Part shown: piece after piece, positions 6,251 through 36,453 of the stretch
How positions within the stretch are numbered: the first letter of the stretch is position 1
Layout of the letters: every line of letters starts with the position of its first letter
Origin: Escherichia coli
Lineage (GTDB): Bacteria; Pseudomonadota; Gammaproteobacteria; Enterobacterales; Enterobacteriaceae
Length of the DNA: 64,000 nt
NCBI RefSeq assembly: GCF_013315695.1
Contig: NZ_CP054354.1
Strand: one strand, 5' to 3'
Notes under the pieces: model-generated
What the model was told of the DNA's origin: nothing
Database searches by the model: none
What the model saw: only the letters and a program-made list of their open reading frames with translations
Position numbers and translations under genes: made by a program

Positions 6251-6622
6251 TTGCACCAGAGAATACTCAGACTGTGATGCTGCCACAGCGTCAGCAGGCT
6301 TTCTGAACGGTGTAACATTACTTCATGTTAATGATAATCACTATCATTAAATCTTGACATGCCATTTTCTCCTTAATAAATTAATACTGTATATGTATCC
6401 ATATACGTAAGCAGTTAATTCATTTGTTTTCCTCAGAGGATGAAGGAGATACCGAATGTCTGACCCTGTACGGGGTTCAGTGAGTTAGCTGGCCTGGATG
6501 TAACCACTCGTTCAACTCAATTCTCTTAGCGTGGGAAAATTTCCCTTTTCCAAGCGGACCCCTATTAATATTTGTTTTGTTTTAGGTTCTATTCAACATA
6601 GGTCATCCTAAAATACATTGAA

Positions 6623-6654
6623 GATAACAAGATAACAAGATAACAAGATAACAA
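6623..6654. repeat. Iteron array: 4 tandem copies of GATAACAA plus inverted copies, downstream of the partition operon
   Basis: gataacaa x4 at 6623-6654, then ggtgttatcttgttatc inverted copies to ~6690. Confidence 0.55.
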
Positions 6655-6679
6655 GGTGTTATCTTGTTATCTCAAGGTG

Positions 6680-6982
6680 TTATCTTTGTTTTACTTCTGC
6701 TATCAATCGTGATACCTCTGTTTTTGATAGTGTTTTAAGTGCTTCTACCGCCGCCCTGACAACATCAGAACGATTCACTCTGCCTTTACCTGAAACCATC
6801 TCAGCCGTTATAAGGGCATCAATGTCTTTTAGGTTTTCTTCAAAAAAAGAAATACTCACTGGTTTTGCTTTGCTTACAACCGATGATTTATCTGATGACT
6901 TTTTGGTATTATCAAGGCCAGCCGTGCCACCGTTAATAAATGCTGCCTCGTCACGAGGTGAAGTGTTTGCTCTATTTCTCAC
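6680..6982 (-). CDS. Partition centromere-binding protein, ParG-like (predicted ribbon-helix-helix C-terminus)
   Basis: 100 aa; GTG start overlapping the ParA stop (GTGA); C-terminal GRVNRSDVVRAAVEALKTL fits a strand-helix-helix pattern; sits immediately after a small ParA. Confidence 0.55.
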   Translation of the reverse strand: MRNRANTSPRDEAAFINGGTAGLDNTKKSSDKSSVVSKAKPVSISFFEENLKDIDALITAEMVSGKGRVNRSDVVRAAVEALKTLSKTEVSRLIAEVKQR

Positions 6983-7605
6983 AGAATAACCTCTTTCACT
7001 AACGCTTCGATTTCTTGCTGGGCTTTATCATTTTGCGTTTCAAAAATTGTCATTGATTCGGCCCAAGCATCTCGATGTGCTTTACGATCACATACCCGGG
7101 AGTTTGCCAGATGCATTTCAGGGTAATCCTTAAGTACTTCAGCTGCCTCATTGGCTTCATTAACAAACATATTTGTGGGCGTCATGTTTAAAACGAGATA
7201 TCCCCGAACATCCTCATTAAAATCTTTTGCTGCTGTAAAAACGGAGCATGTATGAGGCACAACATCCAGGTCCATCTGAGATGGGCGCAAAGGAGAAATG
7301 AATACATCTGCGGCCATCAATCCACTACGCATTTCTGCGCTATCACGGCCAGCACAGTCTGCAATAACAAAATCATAGGATTTTTCGTGTTCCTTTAACA
7401 TGGCTTTGATGTTACCTGTCGCGCCTGTAACCGGAATATGAGGGAGATCTTCAGGGCGATTGTTGTACCAGGTTAATACTGATTTCTGGTCATCTGCGTC
7501 GACAATAATCACTCTATTGCCTAGTGACATCAGATACGCAGCTATAGATACCGCCAGTGTACTTTTACCTACCCCACCCTTTTGACTACCTAATACTATT
7601 ATCAT
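6979..7605 (-). CDS. Partition ATPase, small ParA (type Ib, ParF-like)
   Basis: 208 aa with deviant Walker A KGGVGKST near the N-terminus; GAGG RBS; flanked by iteron arrays. Confidence 0.9.
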   Translation of the reverse strand: MIIVLGSQKGGVGKSTLAVSIAAYLMSLGNRVIIVDADDQKSVLTWYNNRPEDLPHIPVTGATGNIKAMLKEHEKSYDFVIADCAGRDSAEMRSGLMAADVFISPLRPSQMDLDVVPHTCSVFTAAKDFNEDVRGYLVLNMTPTNMFVNEANEAAEVLKDYPEMHLANSRVCDRKAHRDAWAESMTIFETQNDKAQQEIEALVKEVIL

Positions 7606-7731
7606 TATAGCCTCATATTAAGCTGTTAAGTTAACAACTTAATATTGCCATCTGAACGCGAACCATGCAATTATTTTTGTTATGTTAACAACTTAGCAAG
7701 TTGTTAAGTATTTGATTTATAGATTAATTAA

Positions 7732-7795
7732 GATAACAAGATAACAAGATAACAAGATAACAAGATAACAAGATAACAAGATAACAGGATAACAA
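7732..7795. repeat. Iteron array: 8 tandem copies of GATAACAA (one GATAACAG) upstream of parA; likely centromere/operator
   Basis: Perfect 8-bp tandem repeats 7732-7795; additional palindromes (ttaagttaacaactt) at 7620-7710. Confidence 0.6.
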
Positions 7796-25229: not shown

Positions 25230-25600
25230 GTCGCGCCGGATGCAGCGCTCCCTGCACACCTTACGGTGTGTAAGGCCACTGCGCCTGATGGCGCAGCTGT
25301 CTCTGCCTGTCTGCCGCCGCACTGCGGCCTGTTCTCCGCAGACGGACTTTCCGGGGAACATACACGACCACATCCCGTTTCAGTTATCCAGGGGAGAGAT
25401 GTACCAGCCACAAAACTTTTTGCCGCAGGCGTCAAAAACTTTTGCGTCTGCCCCCGGACAACTGCCCCGTGACGTGGTGAGCATCCCCCGTCGGAAAGGT
25501 CCACTGCGGGGAAATCCCCGAAGACCCGGACGGCAGAAGGAGCTTCGCTCCTCCGGGAAATGACCTGGCTGACCCGGCAGTCGTGACGATGAGGAGACAA
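25230..25600. repeat. GC-rich non-coding element, family B copy 3 (partial, 3' ~370 bp)
   Basis: Aligns with the 3' part of 15343-15905 and 21690-22240; ends at the RBS of the 25605 gene. Confidence 0.6.
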
Positions 25601-25604
25601 TGTG

Positions 25605-26453
25605 ATGAATCAGACTTTACCCACTGCTGACCTGAATACTGCCGGCACGACAGATGTTATTCCGTCTGTAGCTATCGACCGCATCATCGCGCAGCGTAAC
25701 GAAGGTATTGCACTGTTCATGCAGGCGATGGAATGCCTGGCGACAGCGCGCAAGATTCTGCTCGATGCGTCAGGTGATATTTTTCTTTACGGGTTTGAAG
25801 ACTGCGTGACTGATTCCGTTCGTCGCATGGATAAGACGGAAGAAGCGAAAAGGAATATCACCCGTCTTGCCGACCGGAAAATCTGGGACCGCCTGATGAC
25901 AGATACGGGCATGTACACCTTCATGAGTTCATGCCAGCGTGATGAGTGGAACAGCCAGCTGATGAGCGACACCTGTCCTGAAATCACCCTGGACAATGTA
26001 CTGGCAACATTCCGCCATCTTAATGCCAGCAAGATGCAGACGTTTGAACAGGGGCTGATTGATGTCTACCGGAAATTGTCATGGGATTACAGAACCAATA
26101 ATCCCTGCCGTCTGGGTAAGAAAATCATTATTGAAAACCTACTGTACCGCTGGAGTAACGGGCGTGTGACGCTGGACTGCAGCGGACGGGAGGCACTGGA
26201 TGACCTGGTACGTCCGTTTTATCTGCTGGAGGGGCGCAACGTTCCTGACTTCAGGAACAGCATCGGGGCGCAGTATGGTGAATTTCTCGGGAACGGTGAC
26301 AATGTCGGTAAGCTGTTAGAAGGGGAATATTTTACGGTGCGTGGCTACCAGAAAGGGACCGTACACATTGTCTTTAAGCGTTCTGACCTTGTTGAAAAAC
26401 TGAATGATATTATTGCACGGCATTATCCTGGTGCATTGCCGCCACGAGTCTGA
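25605..26453 (+). CDS. Hypothetical leading-region protein (283 aa)
   Basis: GAGGAG RBS 25591-25596 then ATG at 25605; terminator-like hairpin at 26464-26496. Confidence 0.6.
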   Translation: MNQTLPTADLNTAGTTDVIPSVAIDRIIAQRNEGIALFMQAMECLATARKILLDASGDIFLYGFEDCVTDSVRRMDKTEEAKRNITRLADRKIWDRLMTDTGMYTFMSSCQRDEWNSQLMSDTCPEITLDNVLATFRHLNASKMQTFEQGLIDVYRKLSWDYRTNNPCRLGKKIIIENLLYRWSNGRVTLDCSGREALDDLVRPFYLLEGRNVPDFRNSIGAQYGEFLGNGDNVGKLLEGEYFTVRGYQKGTVHIVFKRSDLVEKLNDIIARHYPGALPPRV

Positions 26454-26538
26454 TTAAACAGAAAAGCCCAGGTATTTATGCCGGGGCTTTTTTTTCTGTA
26501 ATCATCATAATCTCAGAACACAATGTGACATTGTCACA

Positions 26539-26880
26539 TCAATTGTTGTTCATATCGATGCCATCTTTCCTGCCTGAATCTGTCTTTTTAGGTGCTGTTT
26601 TAGAGGAAGAACGGCGGGATGGTTTTTTCGATTCTGCTTCCCGAATAATGTCACGAAGTGCTTTCTCTCCTACTTCATATCCTGCATTTTTGAGCGTGTC
26701 ACGAACATCTGTCAGTGTATAACCCTTTGTCCTTACCAGGATAATGATGTCATCACGAATGGCATCAAGAAAATCACGCAATGTTTTCCGTTGAGCGGTG
26801 AGGTCTGGCAATTCCGATAAAGCAGCTTTTGCCAGCTGGATGTCATCATCTGAGTAAAATTTTTTAGACGCCATTGGCAC
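26539..26880 (-). CDS. Hypothetical Lys/Ser-rich protein adjacent to oriT (113 aa)
   Basis: GGAGAG RBS before GTG at 26880 (alternative ATG at 26874); basic C-terminal tail. Confidence 0.5.
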   Translation of the reverse strand: MPMASKKFYSDDDIQLAKAALSELPDLTAQRKTLRDFLDAIRDDIIILVRTKGYTLTDVRDTLKNAGYEVGEKALRDIIREAESKKPSRRSSSKTAPKKTDSGRKDGIDMNNN

Positions 26881-26989
26881 TTTCTCTCCGTTTAATGTTG
26901 AAGCCTGATTTTATCATCAAAAACTGCCTCCTGGCAGGGCTGCGCCCTGCCTCTGCCGTCTGCATAAGACTATGATGCACAAAAATAAC

Positions 26990-27065
26990 AGGCTATAATG
27001 GACTGAAAAACGGGACAGGATGTGTAATCGTATAACCGCGCACGCACGGCTATACGATTACCACC
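26990..27065 (-). other. oriT core: MOBP-type nic site ATCCTG|T on the minus strand (nick between 27016 and 27015) plus 11-bp inverted repeat
   Basis: Minus strand reads cacATCCTG|TCCCGTTTTTC; inverted repeat GTAATCGTATA...TATACGATTAC at 27024-27061, 7-8 nt from the nick; sits just upstream of nikA-nikB. Confidence 0.75.
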
Positions 27066-27106
27066 TGGTCAGGGCTTAGCCCCGACACCCCGGTAAGGAG
27101 CAGACC

Positions 27107-27439
27107 ATGAGTGAGAAGAAAACCCGAAGTGGCAGTGAGAAACGGCAAAAGAATGTCCTCATTGCTGTTCGTTTTTCACCAGAAGAGGCTGAGATTGTTA
27201 AAGAAAAGGCAGAAAAAAACGGACTGACAGTTTCAACTCTGATAAGAAAAACTGTGCTGGGAAAACAGATAAATGCCCGCATTGACGAAGATTTTTTGAA
27301 AGAGCTGATGCGTCTTGGTCGCCTGCAGAAGCATCTGTTTGTGGAAGGAAAACGCACGGGAGATAAAGAGTATGCAGAGGTTCTCGTTGCTATTACAGAG
27401 CTTGCTAATACTCTGCGAAGAAATTTAATGGGACGCTGA
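27107..27439 (+). CDS. nikA: Relaxosome accessory protein NikA (ribbon-helix-helix)
   Basis: 110 aa; VRFSPEEAEIVKEKAEKNGLTVSTLIRK...LMRLGRLQKHLFVEGKR matches R64 NikA as recalled; AAGGAG RBS. Confidence 0.9.
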   Translation: MSEKKTRSGSEKRQKNVLIAVRFSPEEAEIVKEKAEKNGLTVSTLIRKTVLGKQINARIDEDFLKELMRLGRLQKHLFVEGKRTGDKEYAEVLVAITELANTLRRNLMGR

Positions 27440-27450
27440 GATAATCGCTG

Positions 27451-30171
27451 ATGAATGCCATCATTCCGAAAAAAAGACGTGACGGAAAGTCTTCTTTTGA
27501 AGACCTGATTGCGTACACCTCAGTGCGGGATGATGTGCCGGAAGATGAACTCAGGCCTGACACGGAAATGAAAGCTGAGATTCCGCACCGGAACCGCTTC
27601 AGACGTCTTGTTGATTATGCAACACGTCTGCGTAATGAAAAATTTGTTTCCCTGATTGATGTGATGAAAGACGGCAGTCAGTGGGTGAATTTCTATGGTG
27701 TGACCTGCTTTCATAACTGTTTGTCTCTTGAATCTGCGGCTGAAGAAATGCAGAAAGCAGCAGAGCTTGCTCATTTTTCCAAAGATGATACAGACCCTGT
27801 TTTTCACTATATTCTCTCCTGGCCTGCGCACGAAAGTCCGCGTTCTGAGCAGCTTTTTGACTGTGTGCGTCACACCCTGAAATCCCTTGAGCTGTCAAAA
27901 CATCAGTATGTGGCAGCCGTTCATACAGACACGGATAACCTGCATGTACATGTTGCAGTGAATCGTGTCCACCCTGAAACCGGCTATATCAATTGCCTTC
28001 CGTGGAGCCAGGAAAAACTCAGTCGTGCATGCCGTGAACTTGAACTTAAGCACGGATTCGCGCCGGATAATGGTTGCTTTGTACATGCACCGGGCAATCG
28101 TATTGTGCGCAAAACAGCGCTGGTACGTGAGCGCCGTAATGCCTGGCGACGCGGGAAAAAGCAGACGTTCAGGGAATATATTGATCAGATGTCGATTGCC
28201 GGGCTGCGTGAAGAGCCAGCACAGGACTGGTTATCTTTGCATAAACGGCTGGCCAGTGATGGTCTGTATATCACGATGCAGGAAGGGGAACTGGTGGTGA
28301 AGGATGGCTGGGACAAAGCGCGGGAAGGTATTGCACTCAGTTCGTTCGGACCGTCATGGACAGCTGAAAAACTGGGGCGGAAACTGGGGGAATATCAGCC
28401 TGTACCGACAGATATTTTCAGTCAGGTGGGGACACCCGGTCGTTATGATCCGGAAGCCATAAACGTTGATATCCGGCCGGAAAAAGTGGCAGAAACGGAG
28501 AGTCTGAAACAGTACGCCTGCCGTCATTTTGCCGAACGCTTACTGGCAATGGCGCGCAATGGTGAACTGAAAAGCTGCCTGGCTGTACACCGTACTCTGG
28601 CAGAGGCGGGATTATGGATGGGGATTCAACACGGGCATCTGGTACTGCATGATGGATTTGATAAACAACAGACACCAGTACGTGCAGACAGTGTGTGGCC
28701 GTTAATGACGCTGGATTACATGCAGGATCTGGATGGTGGATGGCAGCCTGTACCGAAGGATATTTTTACTCAGGTCGTTCCCGGAGAACGATTCCGGGGA
28801 CACAGTATTGGCTCTCAGCCTGTCAGTGATTACGAATGGTATCGCATGAGGATGGGCACAGGTCCGCAGGGGGCTATAAAGCGTGAACTGTTTTCTGATA
28901 AGGAAAGTCTGTGGGGATACGGCCTTATTCAGTGCAGGAGCCTGATTGAAGAGATGATAGCTGACGGGGATTTCAGCTGGCAGGCATGTCATGAGATGTT
29001 TGCACGTAAAGGGCTTATGCTGCAGAAACAGCATCATGGTCTTGTGATTGTGGATGCGTTTAATCATGAGCTGACACCGGTGAAGGCCAGCAGTATCCAT
29101 CCTGATTTGACGTTATCCCGTGCCGAGCCTCAGGCCGGGCCATTTGAAATTGCGGCTGCAGATATTTTCGAACGGGTGAAGCCTGAATGTCGTTACAATC
29201 CGGAACTTGCTGCCAGTGATGAAGTGGAACCCGGCTTCCGGCGCGATCCTGAGATTCGTCGTGAGCGCCGTGAAGCCCGTGCAGCTGCGCGGGAAGATTT
29301 GCGTGCGCGTTATCTTGCATGGAAGGAGCACTGGCGTAAACCCGACTTACGTTACGGAGAACGGTTACGGGAAATTCATGCTGCCTGCCGTCGGCGCAAG
29401 GCGTATATCCGTGTGCAGTTCCGGGATCCACAATTGCGTAAGCTGCATTACCATATTGCGGAAGTGCAGCGTATGCAGGCGCTGATCAGGCTGAAGGAGA
29501 GTGTGAAGGAAGAGCGGTTGTCACTGATTGCGGAGGGTAAGTGGTATCCTTTGTCCTACCGGCAGTGGGTGGAACAACAGGCGGCTCAGGGAGACAGGGC
29601 TGCAGTATCGCAGTTACGTGGCTGGGATTATCGTGATCGTCGCTCGCGTAATAAGGATAAAAGACGCACAACTAATGTTGATCGTTGTGTCGTACTCTGC
29701 GAACCCGGAGGAACGCCACTTTTTAATAATGTTGCAAAACTTGAAGCTCGTCTTCAGAAAAATGGAAGTGTTCATTTCAGGGATACGCGGACAGGAAAAA
29801 ATGTCTGTACGGATTACGGAGATCGGGTTGTTTTCTACCATCACACGGACCGAAATGAACTGGCAGAGAAGCTTGATTTAATTGCGCCAGTTCTGTTCAG
29901 CCGCAACGGAAAGCTTGGTTTTGAGCCGGAAGGTTCATACCAGCAGTTTAATGATGTGTTTGCAGAAATGGTGGCCTGGCACAATGCAGCGGGAATAACC
30001 GGAAACGGACACTTCACCATTACTCGTCCGGACGTGGATTTGCACCGTCAACGCAGTGAGCAGTATTACCGGGAATATATCAGACAGCAGACCCGTTTAT
30101 CGGAGAGCCATGATGATAATTATACGTTACGGCAGGAGAAAACATGGGAGCCACCATCACCTGGAATGTAA
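27451..30171 (+). CDS. nikB: Relaxase NikB (MOBP family)
   Basis: 906 aa; relaxase histidine motif HVHVAVNRVHP; directly downstream of nikA. Confidence 0.95.
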   Translation: MNAIIPKKRRDGKSSFEDLIAYTSVRDDVPEDELRPDTEMKAEIPHRNRFRRLVDYATRLRNEKFVSLIDVMKDGSQWVNFYGVTCFHNCLSLESAAEEMQKAAELAHFSKDDTDPVFHYILSWPAHESPRSEQLFDCVRHTLKSLELSKHQYVAAVHTDTDNLHVHVAVNRVHPETGYINCLPWSQEKLSRACRELELKHGFAPDNGCFVHAPGNRIVRKTALVRERRNAWRRGKKQTFREYIDQMSIAGLREEPAQDWLSLHKRLASDGLYITMQEGELVVKDGWDKAREGIALSSFGPSWTAEKLGRKLGEYQPVPTDIFSQVGTPGRYDPEAINVDIRPEKVAETESLKQYACRHFAERLLAMARNGELKSCLAVHRTLAEAGLWMGIQHGHLVLHDGFDKQQTPVRADSVWPLMTLDYMQDLDGGWQPVPKDIFTQVVPGERFRGHSIGSQPVSDYEWYRMRMGTGPQGAIKRELFSDKESLWGYGLIQCRSLIEEMIADGDFSWQACHEMFARKGLMLQKQHHGLVIVDAFNHELTPVKASSIHPDLTLSRAEPQAGPFEIAAADIFERVKPECRYNPELAASDEVEPGFRRDPEIRRERREARAAAREDLRARYLAWKEHWRKPDLRYGERLREIHAACRRRKAYIRVQFRDPQLRKLHYHIAEVQRMQALIRLKESVKEERLSLIAEGKWYPLSYRQWVEQQAAQGDRAAVSQLRGWDYRDRRSRNKDKRRTTNVDRCVVLCEPGGTPLFNNVAKLEARLQKNGSVHFRDTRTGKNVCTDYGDRVVFYHHTDRNELAEKLDLIAPVLFSRNGKLGFEPEGSYQQFNDVFAEMVAWHNAAGITGNGHFTITRPDVDLHRQRSEQYYREYIRQQTRLSESHDDNYTLRQEKTWEPPSPGM

Positions 30172-30391
30172 GCCCGGATAAGTGATGGTGCAAAGATTCA
30201 GCCCAAAAACGGCAGGAATCTTCGTCAATAAGGGCGGGAGTAGTCACTGAATTGAGTTTATACCCGGTTAACTCTGAATTAAGGGCCGTGTCTGCGGCCC
30301 TTATCCAGTGCGCCGTAAAACCCCGGACTTAGTGAACAGGGTTTTACAGTCTGATTGACAGATATGGTCACCAGAAAATATTTGTATTCCT

Positions 30392-32692
30392 TCAGTATTT
30401 TTCGTCAGTTGTTGGTTGTGCTCCACATGATTTCTGGGGATGATCATTATTTATTGTCTTCGATTTATTATTTTCAGCGACCGGTAACAGTATCTCCAGG
30501 GGGAGCAGGGTATTCAGAATCGCCTTCACTGAAGGTATATCTTCAGGACCGGAGTGTTCCTCTTCCGGACGATTCAGTGTGATATAACATACCCGGCGTT
30601 CTTCCCTGGTTGTGTTATTGATAGTGTGCACAGCCTTTTTCCACAGTTCGTTTGCCCGGGATTCGATATCTGTATCATATTGCGGAAGCAGATCCAGTGA
30701 TGTCTGCGCTGTTGCCAACCGGCGCTGGAATGTATCAATGATACGGTAAGGCTCTGTACGGTTTTTACGACGTTTACGGGATGGTTTTGCTGTCAGTACA
30801 CCGATGATGCTGCTGACATGCTCCGGTGTGGGGAGCCTGCGCTGCACTGTCCTGGGGACGAGACGGCGGAGACGCTCCAGCCGGGGGGCTTCAACGGAAA
30901 TATAGCGGTTGATGACCACCGGATCACTGTCGCAACTTTTCTCGCTGTCCGGAATATACACAGAGGCTGACGGCACCACATCCCCCTGGAAAACGGTAAA
31001 GAACTCACCGGCATTCAGTCTGATCAAATCCTGCACGTCGATTTTGCTTTCCATCTGGATGGTGATCTGGTTACCGTCCACCCAGGACTCACCCATCACA
31101 CCATCGTGGCGCTGCAGGCTGCCCATTCTGGCCCGTGCCTCTTCACCGGCGGCATTTTTCACCGTTCTTGCCGTTTTGTCGTCACTGACAATGCGTCCGG
31201 CGAATTTGGTGCCGGCGTTCTGCATCAGTGTGGCGGTGTTGGTGGCGGAGGTCTGCCCTTCAATTCGCTCCTGATCCTGCGCCATCATTATCAGGGAAAA
31301 CTCCAGTGAACGTACCTGGGTGGCCTCCACAGCAATGCGGTCTGTGTAGTAGGCACCGACTTCGTCAAGGATACAGATATAGGGGAAGCTGCCTTTGTAT
31401 TTTTTGACTTCCAGGGTCTGTGCATCTGTGCCTTCCAGGCGGTAGCCCAGGTCACGGGCGAGGAGCATGCTCTGCTGGGTGACGAACATACGACCGAGTG
31501 CCGACGTGGTATGGGCCGATGTGTCCAGTGCAGGGATCATCACAATCAGAATGCGGTCGCTGTGAATACTGTCGCGAATATCGATATCGCCGGCATCTGC
31601 CGCAAAGACGTCCCCGAAGGTTTCGGCAAAGGTTGTGAACGTTTCCGAGAACTGACCGGAGAGATAAGCATGCTGTTTACGGGGCTCCTCAGTCCAGGCT
31701 GACGGCGTTCTCACCAGTGACATATCGAATCCCGGGACATCCTGCAGGTAGTTTCGCAGTGGTGCGATAGCTTCTTCCGGCCACTGGTCATCAAGGCCAC
31801 GGCAATAGAGTTTTGCCATCCCTTCCAGCGTCATATGTTCCCGTAACATCTGCAGGGACATGGTTTTACCTTCCCGGACGCACCAGAATTTTGTGCCAAA
31901 GACCAGGGCTTTGTTCATGGCTATCGCCCGTGACTGCCATTCACCGCCCTGAACGTTCTGGGGCAGCATGGACTGCATGGTTTCGGCGGTGAAGGCTTCG
32001 GTGCTGAATGCGAACGGGTTCCAGGTGTTTGACTGTGGGCGGGATTTATCGCCACTCTGAATGACTTCACTGCGGGATTTTCCGCCGTTCATGAAGTTGA
32101 TGACTTCGATATCATCCTCCCTGCCAAAACGTCGGGAGAGATACCAGATTGTCCTCGTGGTATCGTTCTGTGCCTTGCCGTCAACAAAGGTAAAGCCTCT
32201 TCCCCAGCAGAGCGGGTTGAGCAGCCAGGCAAAGGTGGTTTCTGTTTTACCGCCACCGGTGGTGGCAAAAAACATGACATGCCGGGTGAGGTCATCCATG
32301 CTCAGCCAGAGTTCGCGACCGATATCGTTGATACGGCGGTAACCGACATAAAAAATCCCCCGGGCGGGGAATGTTTCATCCGCTTCATACTGAAACAGGG
32401 TGGGCCAGAAGCTGAAGAGGCTTCTCCTGACCTTTCTGTCCTGGGAGGGGTCATCAAGGCTGAGTGTCATGGGCATACGCAGGGGGCATCGCCAGCGTTG
32501 CAGCATGAATATCACGGAGGTGACCAGGGTGAACAGCAGGCAGACAGGAAGGGCCAGTGGCCATATCAGCGCCGTAATGATACTGCCGGCCAGACACAGA
32601 CCAGTGATGTTCAGGTTATGCAGTGCATTCCACAACGGGTTTCCCCAGGCCGTGCGGTGTATGAGGTCAGGATTAACGTGGTGCTGGCTCAT
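30392..32692 (-). CDS. trbC: TrbC, DotL-like type IV coupling protein
   Basis: 766 aa; N-terminal transmembrane segments and Walker A TTGGGKT; GAGGAG RBS. Confidence 0.85.
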   Translation of the reverse strand: MSQHHVNPDLIHRTAWGNPLWNALHNLNITGLCLAGSIITALIWPLALPVCLLFTLVTSVIFMLQRWRCPLRMPMTLSLDDPSQDRKVRRSLFSFWPTLFQYEADETFPARGIFYVGYRRINDIGRELWLSMDDLTRHVMFFATTGGGKTETTFAWLLNPLCWGRGFTFVDGKAQNDTTRTIWYLSRRFGREDDIEVINFMNGGKSRSEVIQSGDKSRPQSNTWNPFAFSTEAFTAETMQSMLPQNVQGGEWQSRAIAMNKALVFGTKFWCVREGKTMSLQMLREHMTLEGMAKLYCRGLDDQWPEEAIAPLRNYLQDVPGFDMSLVRTPSAWTEEPRKQHAYLSGQFSETFTTFAETFGDVFAADAGDIDIRDSIHSDRILIVMIPALDTSAHTTSALGRMFVTQQSMLLARDLGYRLEGTDAQTLEVKKYKGSFPYICILDEVGAYYTDRIAVEATQVRSLEFSLIMMAQDQERIEGQTSATNTATLMQNAGTKFAGRIVSDDKTARTVKNAAGEEARARMGSLQRHDGVMGESWVDGNQITIQMESKIDVQDLIRLNAGEFFTVFQGDVVPSASVYIPDSEKSCDSDPVVINRYISVEAPRLERLRRLVPRTVQRRLPTPEHVSSIIGVLTAKPSRKRRKNRTEPYRIIDTFQRRLATAQTSLDLLPQYDTDIESRANELWKKAVHTINNTTREERRVCYITLNRPEEEHSGPEDIPSVKAILNTLLPLEILLPVAENNKSKTINNDHPQKSCGAQPTTDEKY

Positions 32693-33797
32693 TGTGATAC
32701 TCCTCGCTATCTGTTGCTTTCAGGAAGAGGCGAACGGAAGTGGCGTCTTTCAGGATGCCGGACGGCAGGTGCCAGCCGGTATCTGATAACACCCAGGGGG
32801 TTCCGCCAAAACCGAACTGGCGGAAAGCCTGGTTATTGACATCGATGGCAGCACGTGCGGCGGTCAGACACTGTCCATCCTGTGCGGCCGGTGCATCGCC
32901 GGTGGGGGCCATACCACTGTCAGCGGAATACAGCTGATGCCATCCGGTCGCCCGTTTTTGTGAGTCCGGTTCACACAGCAGCGGAGCAGTCCGCTTTGTA
33001 CTGGACTCCCCGCCAATCACGGAGACCGGATAAATCACCACGCTGAATTCCCGGGCCAGTTGCTTAAGCGCGGGTTCCAGCAGACGGCAGTTGATGCATG
33101 CGGGGTCAAGGAAGGCGTACAGCGTGCGTTCATGACCAGTGGACAGGTTAATGGTGAACATCCCCCGGTCTGCGTTGCGTTTAAGTACTGTGGCCAGATT
33201 ACGGCGGGCCTCAGCGGCCTGAACGTGTTGTTCTTCCGTCACTGCCGTCGGGGCGGGGGCAGAAGAAGGTTCCTGCTGTGTGGGAGCCGGGCGGACCGGG
33301 ATGCTGTTAACATGATGTTCCGTATGTGGGCGTGGTGTCTCTGTGTCGGTTACTGGTTCAGCTCTCCATTCCTGAGATGTAGGGTAAGCCAGCGTGGAAG
33401 GGGACTCTGCCTTCATCCAGTGGTAACCTGCAACTGTCGCCGGCAGAGCAATTCCGGCGATAAAGCCACACATCAGTGTCCGCCAGAAGCCATTTTTCCG
33501 GGAGGGATGTTTTCCTTTTCCGGCATATTCGGCATCCAGGCAGGCATCAATCGCTGAGAGCATTCTGCCGATGTGATGTCCGGGACGTTCTGCATCAACG
33601 GTATCAACAAGCACCGTTTCGGTTATTTCGCGAAAAGGGGAACTGAAGGACAGGTGCATCAGCCTGTTATTACGGTTAATCAGTGCGCCCAGTTCTGTGA
33701 CTGGCAGGATGGCAATCACCTCCCGATTACCGTCAGGGTACAGGGCGGTCAGGGACAGGTGTTTATTATTCAGTGTTGCAGTGTAGTGGATGGTCAT
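32673..33797 (-). CDS. trbB: TrbB, thioredoxin-fold disulfide isomerase-like
   Basis: 374 aa; CxxC motif (DPACINC) in the C-terminal domain; start overlaps trbA stop (ATGA). Confidence 0.75.
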   Translation of the reverse strand: MTIHYTATLNNKHLSLTALYPDGNREVIAILPVTELGALINRNNRLMHLSFSSPFREITETVLVDTVDAERPGHHIGRMLSAIDACLDAEYAGKGKHPSRKNGFWRTLMCGFIAGIALPATVAGYHWMKAESPSTLAYPTSQEWRAEPVTDTETPRPHTEHHVNSIPVRPAPTQQEPSSAPAPTAVTEEQHVQAAEARRNLATVLKRNADRGMFTINLSTGHERTLYAFLDPACINCRLLEPALKQLAREFSVVIYPVSVIGGESSTKRTAPLLCEPDSQKRATGWHQLYSADSGMAPTGDAPAAQDGQCLTAARAAIDVNNQAFRQFGFGGTPWVLSDTGWHLPSGILKDATSVRLFLKATDSEEYHNEPAPR

Positions 33798-35137
33798 TGT
33801 TCTTTTTCCTTGTCGGCGGGATGCTGTTTTTCGGTGGTTTCGGTGGTTTCGGTGGTTTCGGTGGTTTCGGTGGTTTCGGTGGTTTCGGTGGTTTCGGTGG
33901 TTTCGGTGGTTTCGGTGGTTTCACCAGTGTCAGTGTCTTCGTCGTTATCATGGCGGCGGGGTATCACGTCATCCGTGAGTGACCAGCGGGTTCTGATCTG
34001 ACGTTTACGATCGCGATCTGGCTGAGGTTCGTCCCATATCAGGCCCAGCCCCAGCATGTCCCGTCGAAGCCCTTCAATGGCCTCTTCCACACAGGGTTCC
34101 GGGCAGGGGAGGCCGAGACGGCTGGCTTCATTTTCTGCCCGGGCAACGGCCACCACGCCGGCCCCTTCGATGAAGCCTTTTGTGGTGTTTGCCCGGTGAA
34201 GGGCATAGAAGAGCGTCCGGTCAACGCCCTTGAGCCACAGCCAGTTGGGGGGCGTCAGGCGCAAATCATGTGCGTAAAGCCAGACCAGACCGCTGCGAAC
34301 GTAACGGTGCTGCCTGAGCCACTGTTGTGCACCTTCTGTTTTTATGACCCGGATAAAGGCGTTTCTGGCCAGTGAATACACTGGCGTGCTGAAACGCCCC
34401 TGGTCCCGCTTGCTTTTGAGTCTGCAGGAGAGGTTGAGGTTATTCATCAGGGAAACAGCCGCTTTCCGGTCCCCGAGGAAGAACTGCAGGCCAAAGACGG
34501 CAAAGAGCGCTTTTTCATGTGGAGCCATGTCTTTCCAGGTGGTCAGAGGCTGGCCCAGCTGCGCCATAAAGCGCTGGCGCGTGGCCGCAACATCGAGCTG
34601 CATGTTGCGGATAAGGTTGTTCTGCGCCACAAAGACTTCCGGGGTTAGAGCGACACGGCGCTCGGGACGTTTTTGTCCGTGGAAGAGTCTGTTGCTGTCT
34701 CCGTCAGCCAGAACGGGGGCGATCGCCGGTGACAGTGATGAAAACAGATGTGGCAGCGTGTGGATATTCAGTGGTCTGCGGGTGAAGCGGGGCTGGGCCG
34801 GATGCTGAAACCACATCCACAGAAAGCCGATCGTCATGGGAAGCAGAATCAGCCAGAGGATCCCCACGGTCTGTGACATGACATCCAGCCACTGGCTGAA
34901 AGTGATCGTTGCAGCGTTGTTGGCGGTGTTGGCCAGCAGGTTATAACGGGGGGCGGCAAAATGGTGAAAAGGCCCCCAGTCAGTCATCCCCCACATTGTG
35001 TGCAGGATCAGGCAGGTGGCAAAGACGATGTCGGGTAAAAAGAGCCAGATGAGAAGCGCAAAGAGCAGACATATGGTGCCAACGATATACCATATGTTCA
35101 TCGGGTCTTCTGTTGTGGGGGAGTGTTGGTAAGACAC
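33794..35137 (-). CDS. trbA: TrbA (membrane protein) with a C-terminal Thr-Thr-Glu repeat tract
   Basis: 447 aa; GTG start 7 nt after GGAGG; N-terminal transmembrane segments; C-terminus (TTE)x9. Confidence 0.75.
   Translation of the reverse strand: MSYQHSPTTEDPMNIWYIVGTICLLFALLIWLFLPDIVFATCLILHTMWGMTDWGPFHHFAAPRYNLLANTANNAATITFSQWLDVMSQTVGILWLILLPMTIGFLWMWFQHPAQPRFTRRPLNIHTLPHLFSSLSPAIAPVLADGDSNRLFHGQKRPERRVALTPEVFVAQNNLIRNMQLDVAATRQRFMAQLGQPLTTWKDMAPHEKALFAVFGLQFFLGDRKAAVSLMNNLNLSCRLKSKRDQGRFSTPVYSLARNAFIRVIKTEGAQQWLRQHRYVRSGLVWLYAHDLRLTPPNWLWLKGVDRTLFYALHRANTTKGFIEGAGVVAVARAENEASRLGLPCPEPCVEEAIEGLRRDMLGLGLIWDEPQPDRDRKRQIRTRWSLTDDVIPRRHDNDEDTDTGETTETTETTETTETTETTETTETTETTETTEKQHPADKEKEQ
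33832..33921. repeat. Perfect 9-bp tandem repeat (cggtggttt x10) encoding the TrbA TTE tract
   Basis: Ten exact units at 33832-33921. Confidence 0.9.
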
Positions 35138-35281
35138 GAGGATTCCTCCATCGATAAATAGATAAATTTCGGGATGAGGCTGAGTGGAATTAATGCGAAC
35201 AATCGCCGGTAATGACCGGGCAGGGCTGAATTCAGCAGGGCATTTTCACAGGAACAACAGAAGGTGGTGAGAGACAGGCAC

Positions 35282-35312
35282 AAAAAAGCCGACTGGTGAG
35301 GCCGGCTTTTTT
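35282..35312. terminator. Hairpin flanked by A-run and T-run (bidirectional terminator geometry) at the start of type I module 1
   Basis: aaaaaagccgactggtgaggccggctttttt; on the minus strand the hairpin is followed by a T-run. Confidence 0.55.
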
Positions 35313-35375
35313 GCGATCCCAGGGAGAGTGGGTGGCTCTGGCCCGGAGGAAGTCTCTTTTCAACTAACGTTACCA
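35313..35375 (-). ncRNA. Predicted antisense sRNA for module 1 (cis-encoded upstream, minus strand)
   Basis: 35335-35367 repeats 35570-35601 (in the toxin leader) at ~31/33; a minus-strand transcript here would be complementary to the leader and end at the 35282-35312 terminator. Not demonstrated. Confidence 0.3.
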
Positions 35376-35673
35376 GAATATCGTTATATTCACCTGATCG
35401 CAATCTGTTCGTTACAGTCTATTGTTCCGGGAGTAGCGATATCGCCTGAAACAAGTATAATCAGCAAGTTAGCCTTGTCTGGAGACTTACCTTCGCATCA
35501 ATCCATCGGGACTATGGATCTGTGCTATTCAAAGACCTGGGCGGACAAACAGGTGGTGCTGCGTCTGGTGCTCTGGCCGGAGGAAGTCTCTTTTCAGCTA
35601 ACAATGAAAGAGCTGTTGTGACAGGCAATGTAAGAGTAAACAACAGTGATTTCCTCCATTGATGGAGAAACGG

Positions 35674-35769
35674 ATGATTAACCTGTTAATCATCGTTCTC
35701 AGGGCGGTTGTTGCTGTGGCTAACGCAGTGATAGCTCTCCTGGAACTGATCCGGGAACTGGTTGACTGA
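35674..35769 (+). CDS. DinQ/TisB-like type I toxin, copy 1 (31 aa, single transmembrane helix)
   Basis: MINLLIIVLRAVVAVANAVIALLELIRELVD; GGAG RBS 6 nt upstream next to a CCTCC stretch; strong terminator 35791-35816; below the ORF-track size cutoff. Confidence 0.6.
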   Translation: MINLLIIVLRAVVAVANAVIALLELIRELVD

Positions 35770-35790
35770 TAATCCCGGAAACGTACTTAA

Positions 35791-35819
35791 GGGCAGAGGG
35801 TCACCGCCCTCTGCCCTTT
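35791..35819 (+). terminator. Terminator hairpin after toxin copy 1
   Basis: gggcagaggg-tcaccg-ccctctgccc followed by ttt. Confidence 0.55.
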
Positions 35820-36010
35820 AATAATCTACGGACAGATTACTTTCTGTACTTCCAGAGCCTGTTTCTGTGAGTCAAACATGAGCTGGTTTTTACCGACTAC
35901 ACCCAAGTAAATATATTCGATATCTCCCATTTGCCGTATTTTCGTAAAATTCAACAGGAAATATTCAACGGGAGTGAGAGAACTGCTGTCCGGGGAGGAG
36001 GTACAGACGC

Positions 36011-36044
36011 AAAAAAACCGACTGGTGAGGCCGGTTTTTTTGCG
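36011..36044. terminator. Hairpin with flanking A/T runs at the start of type I module 2
   Basis: aaaaaaaccgactggtgaggccggttttttt, paralogue of 35282-35312. Confidence 0.55.
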
Positions 36045-36105
36045 ATTCCGGATCGAAGTTGGTAGCCCTGACCGGAAGATAACTGCCTATAACTGACTAT
36101 GAAAT
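36045..36105 (-). ncRNA. Predicted antisense sRNA for module 2
   Basis: 36071-36101 repeats 36254-36292 (toxin 2 leader) at ~26/30; repeat sequence differs from module 1. Confidence 0.3.
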
Positions 36106-36357
36106 AATACGGCTGAAATAATATTTCTGCAAGCACAGTATAAGTATATACTCGGTGTGTCAGCTTTGAGGCACGTTCTTTCCGGCATATCGTTCACCGG
36201 GATGAACAGGTTGCAAGTCCTGGCCAAAACATCAGGTGGTGCTGGTTTTGGTGCTCTGGCCGGAGAAGAACTGTCTATAACTGACACTATAGAAAACGTG
36301 GCGACAGGCAATGTAAGGGCAAACCACGGTGTTCTTTCTCCATTGATGGAGAAGCGG

Positions 36358-36453
36358 ATGATTAACCTGTTAATCATCGTTCTCAGGGCGGTTGTTGCTG
36401 TGGCTAACGCAGTGATAGCAATCCTGGAACTGATCCGGGAACTGGTTGACTGA
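36358..36453 (+). CDS. DinQ/TisB-like type I toxin, copy 2 (31 aa)
   Basis: MINLLIIVLRAVVAVANAVIAILELIRELVD, one substitution from copy 1; same RBS context and terminator. Confidence 0.6.
   Translation: MINLLIIVLRAVVAVANAVIAILELIRELVD

Follow-up and report, generated by a model that had tools for sequence, protein, structure and literature searches.

The trbA gene of an IncB/O/K/Z-type (I-complex) conjugative plasmid carries ten identical head-to-tail copies of a 9-bp unit, and the number of these copies differs by whole units among closely related plasmids. We consider it likely that this tract is an in-frame coding VNTR whose copy number is driven by slippage, and that the length of the protein tail that it encodes is tolerated, this tail forming a disordered acidic spacer with at most a weak modulatory effect.

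A perfect 9-bp repeat within trbA

Within the 64-kb stretch of DNA that was analysed (hereafter the window), Tandem Repeats Finder (TRF) delimits an exact period-9 run of 94 bp at 33829–33922, which amounts to 10.4 copies with 100% matches (score 188), and whose unit reads TTTCGGTGG on the plus strand and CCACCGAAA on the minus strand, the latter being the coding one. A direct check of the sequence established that 33832–33921 consists of exactly ten CGGTGGTTT units, as had been stated by the first-pass annotation, which had reported ten copies free of point differences. The array cannot be put down to chance, since elsewhere in the window the CGGTGGTTT unit is absent from the plus strand and present just once on the minus strand. 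In the frame of trbA on the minus strand, codons 407–436 (33830–33919) read (ACC ACC GAA)10 and hence encode (Thr-Thr-Glu)10, that is, (TTE)10. The repeat had been described as the tail of TrbA, and its ten exact in-frame copies agree with this description, but it does not reach the extreme C-terminus: 11 further residues, KQHPADKEKEQ, come after (TTE)10 and before the stop codon.

The trbA ORF (33794–35137, minus strand) encodes, when read from a GTG at 35137, a 447-aa DotM-like subunit of the I-type (T4B) conjugative coupling complex. Its start is ambiguous, as an ATG at 35101 would give a protein of 435 aa, and both the GTG and the ATG are in use in public annotations of 10-copy trbA alleles. 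On the same strand, a DotM_C-like cytoplasmic domain (aa 185–358) is encoded at 34064–34585 and a predicted disordered C-terminal tail (aa 377–447) at 33797–34009, the latter being composed of a DNDEDTDTGE acidic patch, of (TTE)10, and then of the KQHPADKEKEQ end, which is conserved within the lineage. The last 11 codons and the stop of trbA (33794–33828, minus strand) were read as holding an SD-like AAGGA for trbB, and the stop of trbA overlaps the start of trbB in an ATGA, an arrangement which suggests that the translation of the two genes may be coupled. The array lies upstream of the trbB ATG, from which its end is separated by 32 nt.

Directly downstream of trbA, the trbB gene (32673–33797, minus strand) encodes a DsbC/thioredoxin-like protein, and trbC (30392–32692, minus strand) encodes a DotL/VirD4-like coupling protein (NCBIfam TrbC_conju, 1007 bits; Pfam TraG-D_C), the partner of the DotM-like TrbA. 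The gene order is thus trbA-trbB-trbC on one strand, with trbA adjoining, and upstream of, the gene segment of the DotL-like ATPase. The plasmids closest to the window are of the IncK2/Z, IncI1/B/O, or IncI-gamma/K1 types, with MPF_I and MOBP, and a 25-kb query from the window matches such plasmids, pMS7163B included, at 97–99% identity (97% over 98% of the query for pMS7163B itself). The host element is an IncB/O/K/Z-type conjugative plasmid. In pMS7163B, a trbA::Cm mutation abolishes conjugation, which is restored by complementation in trans (PMC10286972).

With respect to the surroundings of trbA, a comparison with the closest 25-kb relative (NZ_CP146671.1, 8 copies; query 21500–46400) placed nearly all of the 149 mismatches in nikB-trbC-trbB-trbA (~25500–35500), the ~10-kb flank on the other side being nearly identical to the window, which suggests that the relaxase and coupling-protein region may be a recombinational mosaic. 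Just upstream of trbA, TRF also detected two short 12-bp repeats sharing a common motif (ATCCGGGAACTG), at 35738–35760 and 36421–36444, ~680 bp apart; in the region matching ~35700–36450, dqlB, which encodes a DinQ-like type I toxin, is present twice in one relative (L017), and this suggests a duplicated small toxin module upstream of trbA, where R64 has pnd. Further away in the window, arrays of the 8-bp unit AAGATAAC are found at 6621–6672 (4.4 direct copies, then two inverted) and at 7730–7795 (8.2 copies). They flank a minus-strand pair formed by a 208-aa ParA/MipZ-like ATPase (6979–7605) and a 100-aa ORF (6680–6982) for which a search against Pfam gave no match, and the ensemble resembles the layout of a type Ib partition cassette, with centromere/operator repeats on both sides.

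Copy number across related plasmids

A 390-bp query across the tract has matches in ~470 plasmid records and in 392 E. coli records, and copy-number distributions were drawn from evenly spaced samples of each ranking, at 59 rows apiece. All full-length matches in the two samples (118 of 118) span 390+9k bp, with a range of 309 to 417. In the plasmid sample, alleles of 1, 2, 3, 4, 5, 6, and 7 copies were met 5, 8, 2, 6, 6, 8, and 5 times, respectively, and those of 8, 9, 10, 11, 12, and 13 copies 5, 2, 4, 3, 2, and 3 times. In the E. coli sample, where copy number ranges from 1 to 11, the corresponding figures were 7, 14, 2, 6, 10, 4, and 5 for 1 to 7 copies, then 5, 3, 1, 2, 0, and 0 for 8 to 13 copies. 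Both distributions are broad and devoid of a sharp mode. At each of the 24 loci that were fetched, 1–13 units occupy one fixed position, and the reading frame of trbA and its overlap with trbB are intact. The first-pass annotation had predicted that the length of the TrbA tail would differ from isolate to isolate by multiples of 9 bp and had proposed to look for this in related plasmids: such variation is indeed what the comparison brought out, from 1 to 13 whole units with the frame kept, and the copy number is not invariant. A phase-variable on/off switch was rejected, since the 9-bp unit is a multiple of three and since, in all 24 alleles, the ORF and its overlap with trbB are preserved.

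The arrays at these 24 loci are pure TTTCGGTGG except for a few. A 13-unit allele (L012) has two interrupted units, and the 8-unit array of pO104_H21 is made of six TTTCAGTGG units (ACT for ACC, both Thr, hence synonymous), of one further point variant, and of one canonical unit. Given that pO113, a relative of pO104_H21, has two units, the comparison of the two arrays indicates that expansion arose independently on different founder units.

From the perspective of the pace of change, several sets of plasmids combine near-identical flanks with distinct copy numbers. The loci L005 and L009 have 3 and 11 copies, and L001 and L002 have 6 and 5, in both cases with 0 flank mismatches in 3 kb; L001 and L010 (6 and 8 copies) as well as L003 and L013 (10 and 7 copies) are separated by 1 flank mismatch in 3 kb. 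Three UK S. sonnei plasmids of ~86.9 kb have 10, 9, and 10 copies, with 0 flank mismatches in 4.4 kb. Likewise, the IncK2 blaCMY-2 plasmids pDV45, p5312.29, pTMSA970, and pTMSA1088, which their publication presents as virtually identical except in the shufflon and in one variable region (PMC5350095), have 12, 11, 10, and 10 copies, respectively, with 0–1 flank mismatches in 3.2 kb. Copy number is thus decoupled from backbone divergence. The absence of point differences between units had been taken earlier as a sign of recent expansion or ongoing slippage, and the identical flanks associated with differing copy numbers are in keeping with change that is both recent and recurrent. On a shorter scale, at least 17 S. 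sonnei records have 6 copies in every one, which indicates stability of the tract during short clonal spread.

Because the differences consist of whole units only and because near-identical backbones differ in copy number, we infer that the tract is a slippage-driven coding VNTR, which would change far faster than point mutation. Units may be gained and lost through slipped-strand mispairing in replication or in conjugative DNA synthesis, and such gains and losses would never break the trbA frame nor the downstream coupling of trbB. That the copy-number differences might instead be produced by assembly or sequencing is hardly credible: tandem repeats of 90–117 bp do come close to the length of short reads, and some records rest on long reads alone, but each difference amounts to a whole multiple of 9, the units being otherwise perfect, the S. 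sonnei records agree with one another at 6 copies, and IncK2 plasmids with Sanger-confirmed SNPs (PMC5350095) still differ from each other, at 10, 11, and 12 copies. Taken together, these three observations exclude an assembly artefact for practical purposes.

It is also very improbable that the array is at heart a DNA- or RNA-level element, be it a series of iteron-like protein sites or an unstructured C/A-rich leader aiding the translation of trbB, with the peptide as an incidental product. Such a role would suit the position of the array, which stops 32 nt short of the trbB start codon, and the mRNA over it, which is almost structure-free (MFE of -8.9 kcal/mol for 191 nt, z of +0.63). However, many natural plasmids carry a single unit, which is unfit for a required binding array, and a standby site is not needed if trbB is coupled to trbA through the ATGA overlap; besides, no promoter-like site was found when searched for in 33500–34300, the frame is always kept, and the variant unit is synonymous. 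Accordingly, an iteron, promoter, or protein-binding array was rejected on account of the location of the tract inside a coding region, of the commonness of 1–2-unit alleles, and of this lack of promoter-like sites. RNA structure across the array was rejected as well, in view of the same fold z-score.

The product names given to TrbA in the sampled records follow the number of repeats. Alleles with up to 9 units are named "IncI1-type conjugal transfer protein TrbA," those with 10, 11, or 13 units are named "conjugal transfer protein TrbA" or "DotM-related subunit," and the two listed 12-unit alleles are named "hypothetical protein." The VNTR apparently pushes TrbA across the threshold of a naming model at ~10 units, and thereby perturbs automated annotation.

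TrbA as a DotM relative with an acidic tail

The gene name proposed by the first-pass annotation was right: relatives of the ORF are annotated as "IncI1-type conjugal transfer protein TrbA," with a DsbC-family gene (trbB) and trbC downstream, and Pfam DotM_C (PF23127) matches TrbA at aa 185–358 with 158.9 bits against a cutoff of 27 (E 1.9e-46). A phmmer search against the PDB matched only DotM chains (E 2.4e-7), with TrbA 187–358 aligned to DotM 201–362 of 380. The AlphaFold2 (AF2) model of TrbA, built on 30 homologues, has pLDDT values mostly of 82–95 at aa 161–370, with dips at ~aa 241–250 and 291–300, and adopts the all-alpha DotM fold; with this model as a query, Foldseek returned only DotM entries from the PDB at E <1e-3 (TM-score on target of 0.68–0.86). 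Taken together, the annotation of relatives, the Pfam/NCBIfam matches, the PDB sequence matches, and the Foldseek hits identify TrbA as the DotM-like partner of the DotL-like coupling ATPase in an I-type (T4B) conjugation system. At the level of the Legionella-type DotM equivalog (NCBIfam NF033890), TrbA obtained 69.4 bits and is below the cutoff of 230; as judged from these profile scores, it is DotM-related and not a DotM equivalog. Hydrophobic windows start at aa 12–30 and 86–93, and AF2 predicts helices at 12–32, 34–51, and 92–111, so that TrbA would comprise an N-terminal membrane region and a cytoplasmic C-terminal domain. The function of TrbA is still described as unknown (PMC5802825).

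DotM/IcmP of Legionella pneumophila (PDB 6EXB, 5X1U, 6SZ9; PMC5802825), a member of the T4B coupling complex, shares its cytoplasmic fold with TrbA, with Foldseek TM-scores of 0.72–0.86 on the target; in both proteins the N-terminal part is a membrane region and the surface is basic, and both genes are located upstream of one for a DotL-like ATPase. The two proteins differ in that their identity is just ~26–29% and in that most of the arginines that bind Glu-rich peptides in DotM are not conserved in TrbA. They also differ in their ends, as DotM stops ~18 residues past the fold, whereas the TrbA of the window runs on for 89 residues, including the repeat.

In TrbA, the DotM-like fold ends at ~residue 364 and the repeat lies beyond it, in a region (aa 377–447) which the AF2 model leaves without secondary structure and with pLDDT below 50. 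The charges of the two parts are opposite: aa 151–358 have a net charge of +13 and a pI of 10.3, and the 89-residue tail has a net charge of -14, which is further shifted by -1 with each additional unit. As a result, the calculated pI of the whole protein goes from 9.1 at one unit to 6.2 at 13 units.

Most homologues of TrbA, the R64-like IncI1 cluster included, are 401–406 aa long and lack the repeat; they share ...LGLIWDEPQPDRDRKRRIRTNWSLTDD..., followed by ~10–14 Asp/Glu-rich residues and a terminal Phe (...DDDSPF, ...DHEF). Among the TrbA homologues compared, (TTE)n followed by ...HPADKEK.Q is limited to the branch of the window. On these alignments, the acidic end is a feature of the TrbA family and the repeat a lineage-specific, expandable elaboration of it, the VNTR being confined to the IncB/O/K/Z-type branch. 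The R64-type IncI1 TrbA (~402 aa), for which the comparison was made with the R64-like protein cluster P0003, illustrates this relationship: it is an orthologue with the same trbABC arrangement and 75% identity to the TrbA of the window, with which it shares a ...LGLIWDEPQPDRDRKR.I.T.WSLTDD... motif and then an acidic end, but it has no TTE repeat, and its tail of ~10 residues ends in ...PRPPATDHEF. That an acidic C-terminal end is conserved family-wide argues for some function of the tail that its length or charge could modulate.

A look at the termini of the homologues P0006–P0040 adds that most of them end in acidic residues followed by Pro/Leu-Phe (...DDDSPF, ...DEQPF, ...DDTLF, ...DHEF), an end that the window allele does not have. 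E. coli SSB has an acidic tip at its C-terminus (DDDIPF) that serves as a protein-docking peptide, and these acidic, Phe-terminated ends are presumably reminiscent of it. The lineage of the window appears to have replaced this ending with (TTE)n-KQHPADKEKEQ.

Tail length, conjugation, and comparable repeats

Plasmids proficient in transfer are found at 2, 5, 10, and 11 copies, which indicates that the length of the tract is tolerated. Indeed, pMS7163B, whose tract has 5 copies, conjugates and needs trbA to do so (PMC10286972); p5312.29 and pTMSA970, with 11 and 10 copies, both gave transconjugants, with the same reported frequencies (PMC5350095); and pO113, where the array is of 2 units, has been described with a functional transfer region (PMC2681110). 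Since several lengths are transfer-proficient and since the copy-number distribution is broad, we favor a spacer with at most a weak effect. Each change in copy number would produce a disordered acidic tail of another length, to which every unit contributes one more negative charge, and this tail would act as a flexible, largely length-tolerant spacer between the conserved acidic patch and the conserved terminal peptide. On the basis of this tolerance, we take copy number to be, most probably, close to neutral with regard to conjugation, with a weak modulatory effect at the very most; it does not amount to an on/off switch. The only variant unit that has expanded, TTTCAGTGG in pO104_H21, is synonymous, which is weakly suggestive of a constraint on the peptide.

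A more ambitious proposal, which we regard as unlikely, is that of an adaptive rheostat: (TTE)n would be a functional acidic element whose length or charge tunes the coupling complex, and slippage would supply selectable variation in transfer efficiency or in substrate choice. The tail could then serve in cis as a pseudo-substrate or as an electrostatic shield for the basic DotM-like domain, or could determine how far the conserved terminal peptide reaches. In this regard, basic patches of DotM are known to bind acidic Glu-rich C-terminal peptides (PMC5802825), and TrbA has a net charge of +13 at aa 151–358, where R307 (aligned to DotM R314) and K303 are invariant among the 30 homologues. Each unit brings one more negative charge, which takes the pI from 9.1 to 6.2, acidic ends are kept throughout the family, and the sole independently expanded variant unit is synonymous. 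However, R196, R197, R217, and R315 of DotM are not conserved in TrbA (in the alignment, R217 is replaced by D203 and R315 by T308), the tail is not docked on the domain in the AF2 model, the broad distribution of copy number displays no clear optimum, the 10- and 11-copy plasmids have the same reported transfer frequencies, and alleles of 2 to 13 units are maintained in natural plasmids that typing classes as conjugative. As to the structural point, a docked conformation of the tail was sought in the AF2 model of TrbA and none was seen, a result that speaks neither for nor against a fuzzy electrostatic interaction. One version of the idea, in which (TTE)n would be a built-in acidic pseudo-substrate that occupies or shields a basic surface of the Glu-rich-peptide-binding type, on TrbA's own DotM-like domain or on a neighboring subunit, and in which the number of units, changed by slippage, would act in IncB/O/K/Z plasmids as a heritable rheostat for the recruitment of substrates and the frequency of conjugation, strikes us as improbable. 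Should it nonetheless be true that copy number tunes transfer, conjugation would be under a novel form of heritable control; the evidence favors tolerance over control.

TrbA is essential for the transfer of I-complex resistance plasmids, and the repeat has practical implications. The tract separates plasmids that otherwise look identical, as in the IncK2 blaCMY-2 set and in the UK S. sonnei plasmids, and could therefore help track plasmid transmission; it is also a source of spurious "differences" or of collapsed repeats in plasmid comparisons. Moreover, the natural allelic series, with its 1–13 units of one charge each, could be used to test the role of acidic tails in DotM-type proteins. 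As a coding VNTR in the disordered tail of a conjugation coupling protein, the tract is of a known kind, and this particular case is apparently unreported. In the searched literature, we found no description of a trbA tandem repeat, which does not prove it unreported (PMC10286972 and PMC5350095 are silent on the tract), and no use of it for typing. The 9-bp repeat of PMC8004404 is a different one, located near pilJ.

The closest precedent is the QQP (Gln/Pro) repeat of F-like TraD (PMC3245843), which is also a short in-frame repeat of variable length (5 residues in F, 23 in R1). It, too, belongs to a protein of the coupling complex, where it lies in a C-terminal extension that is disordered and is followed by a conserved interaction peptide at the terminus; its significance is described as unresolved (PMC3245843). 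The two cases are nevertheless distinct, as TraD is a VirD4-type ATPase of an F-type system with a neutral Q/P repeat, whereas TrbA is a DotM-like partner in an I-type/T4B system with an acidic T/E repeat. In addition, the TrbA array differs from the QQP repeat in its perfect purity and in its variation between plasmids that are identical in other respects. Plasmid-borne VNTR loci, such as STTR10pl on pSLT, serve in MLVA typing, and their copy number shifts on outbreak time-scales. The trbA tract resembles loci of the STTR10pl type in being a short tandem repeat on a plasmid and a possible typing marker, and it differs from MLVA loci in that it is located in a gene essential for transfer and alters the encoded protein.
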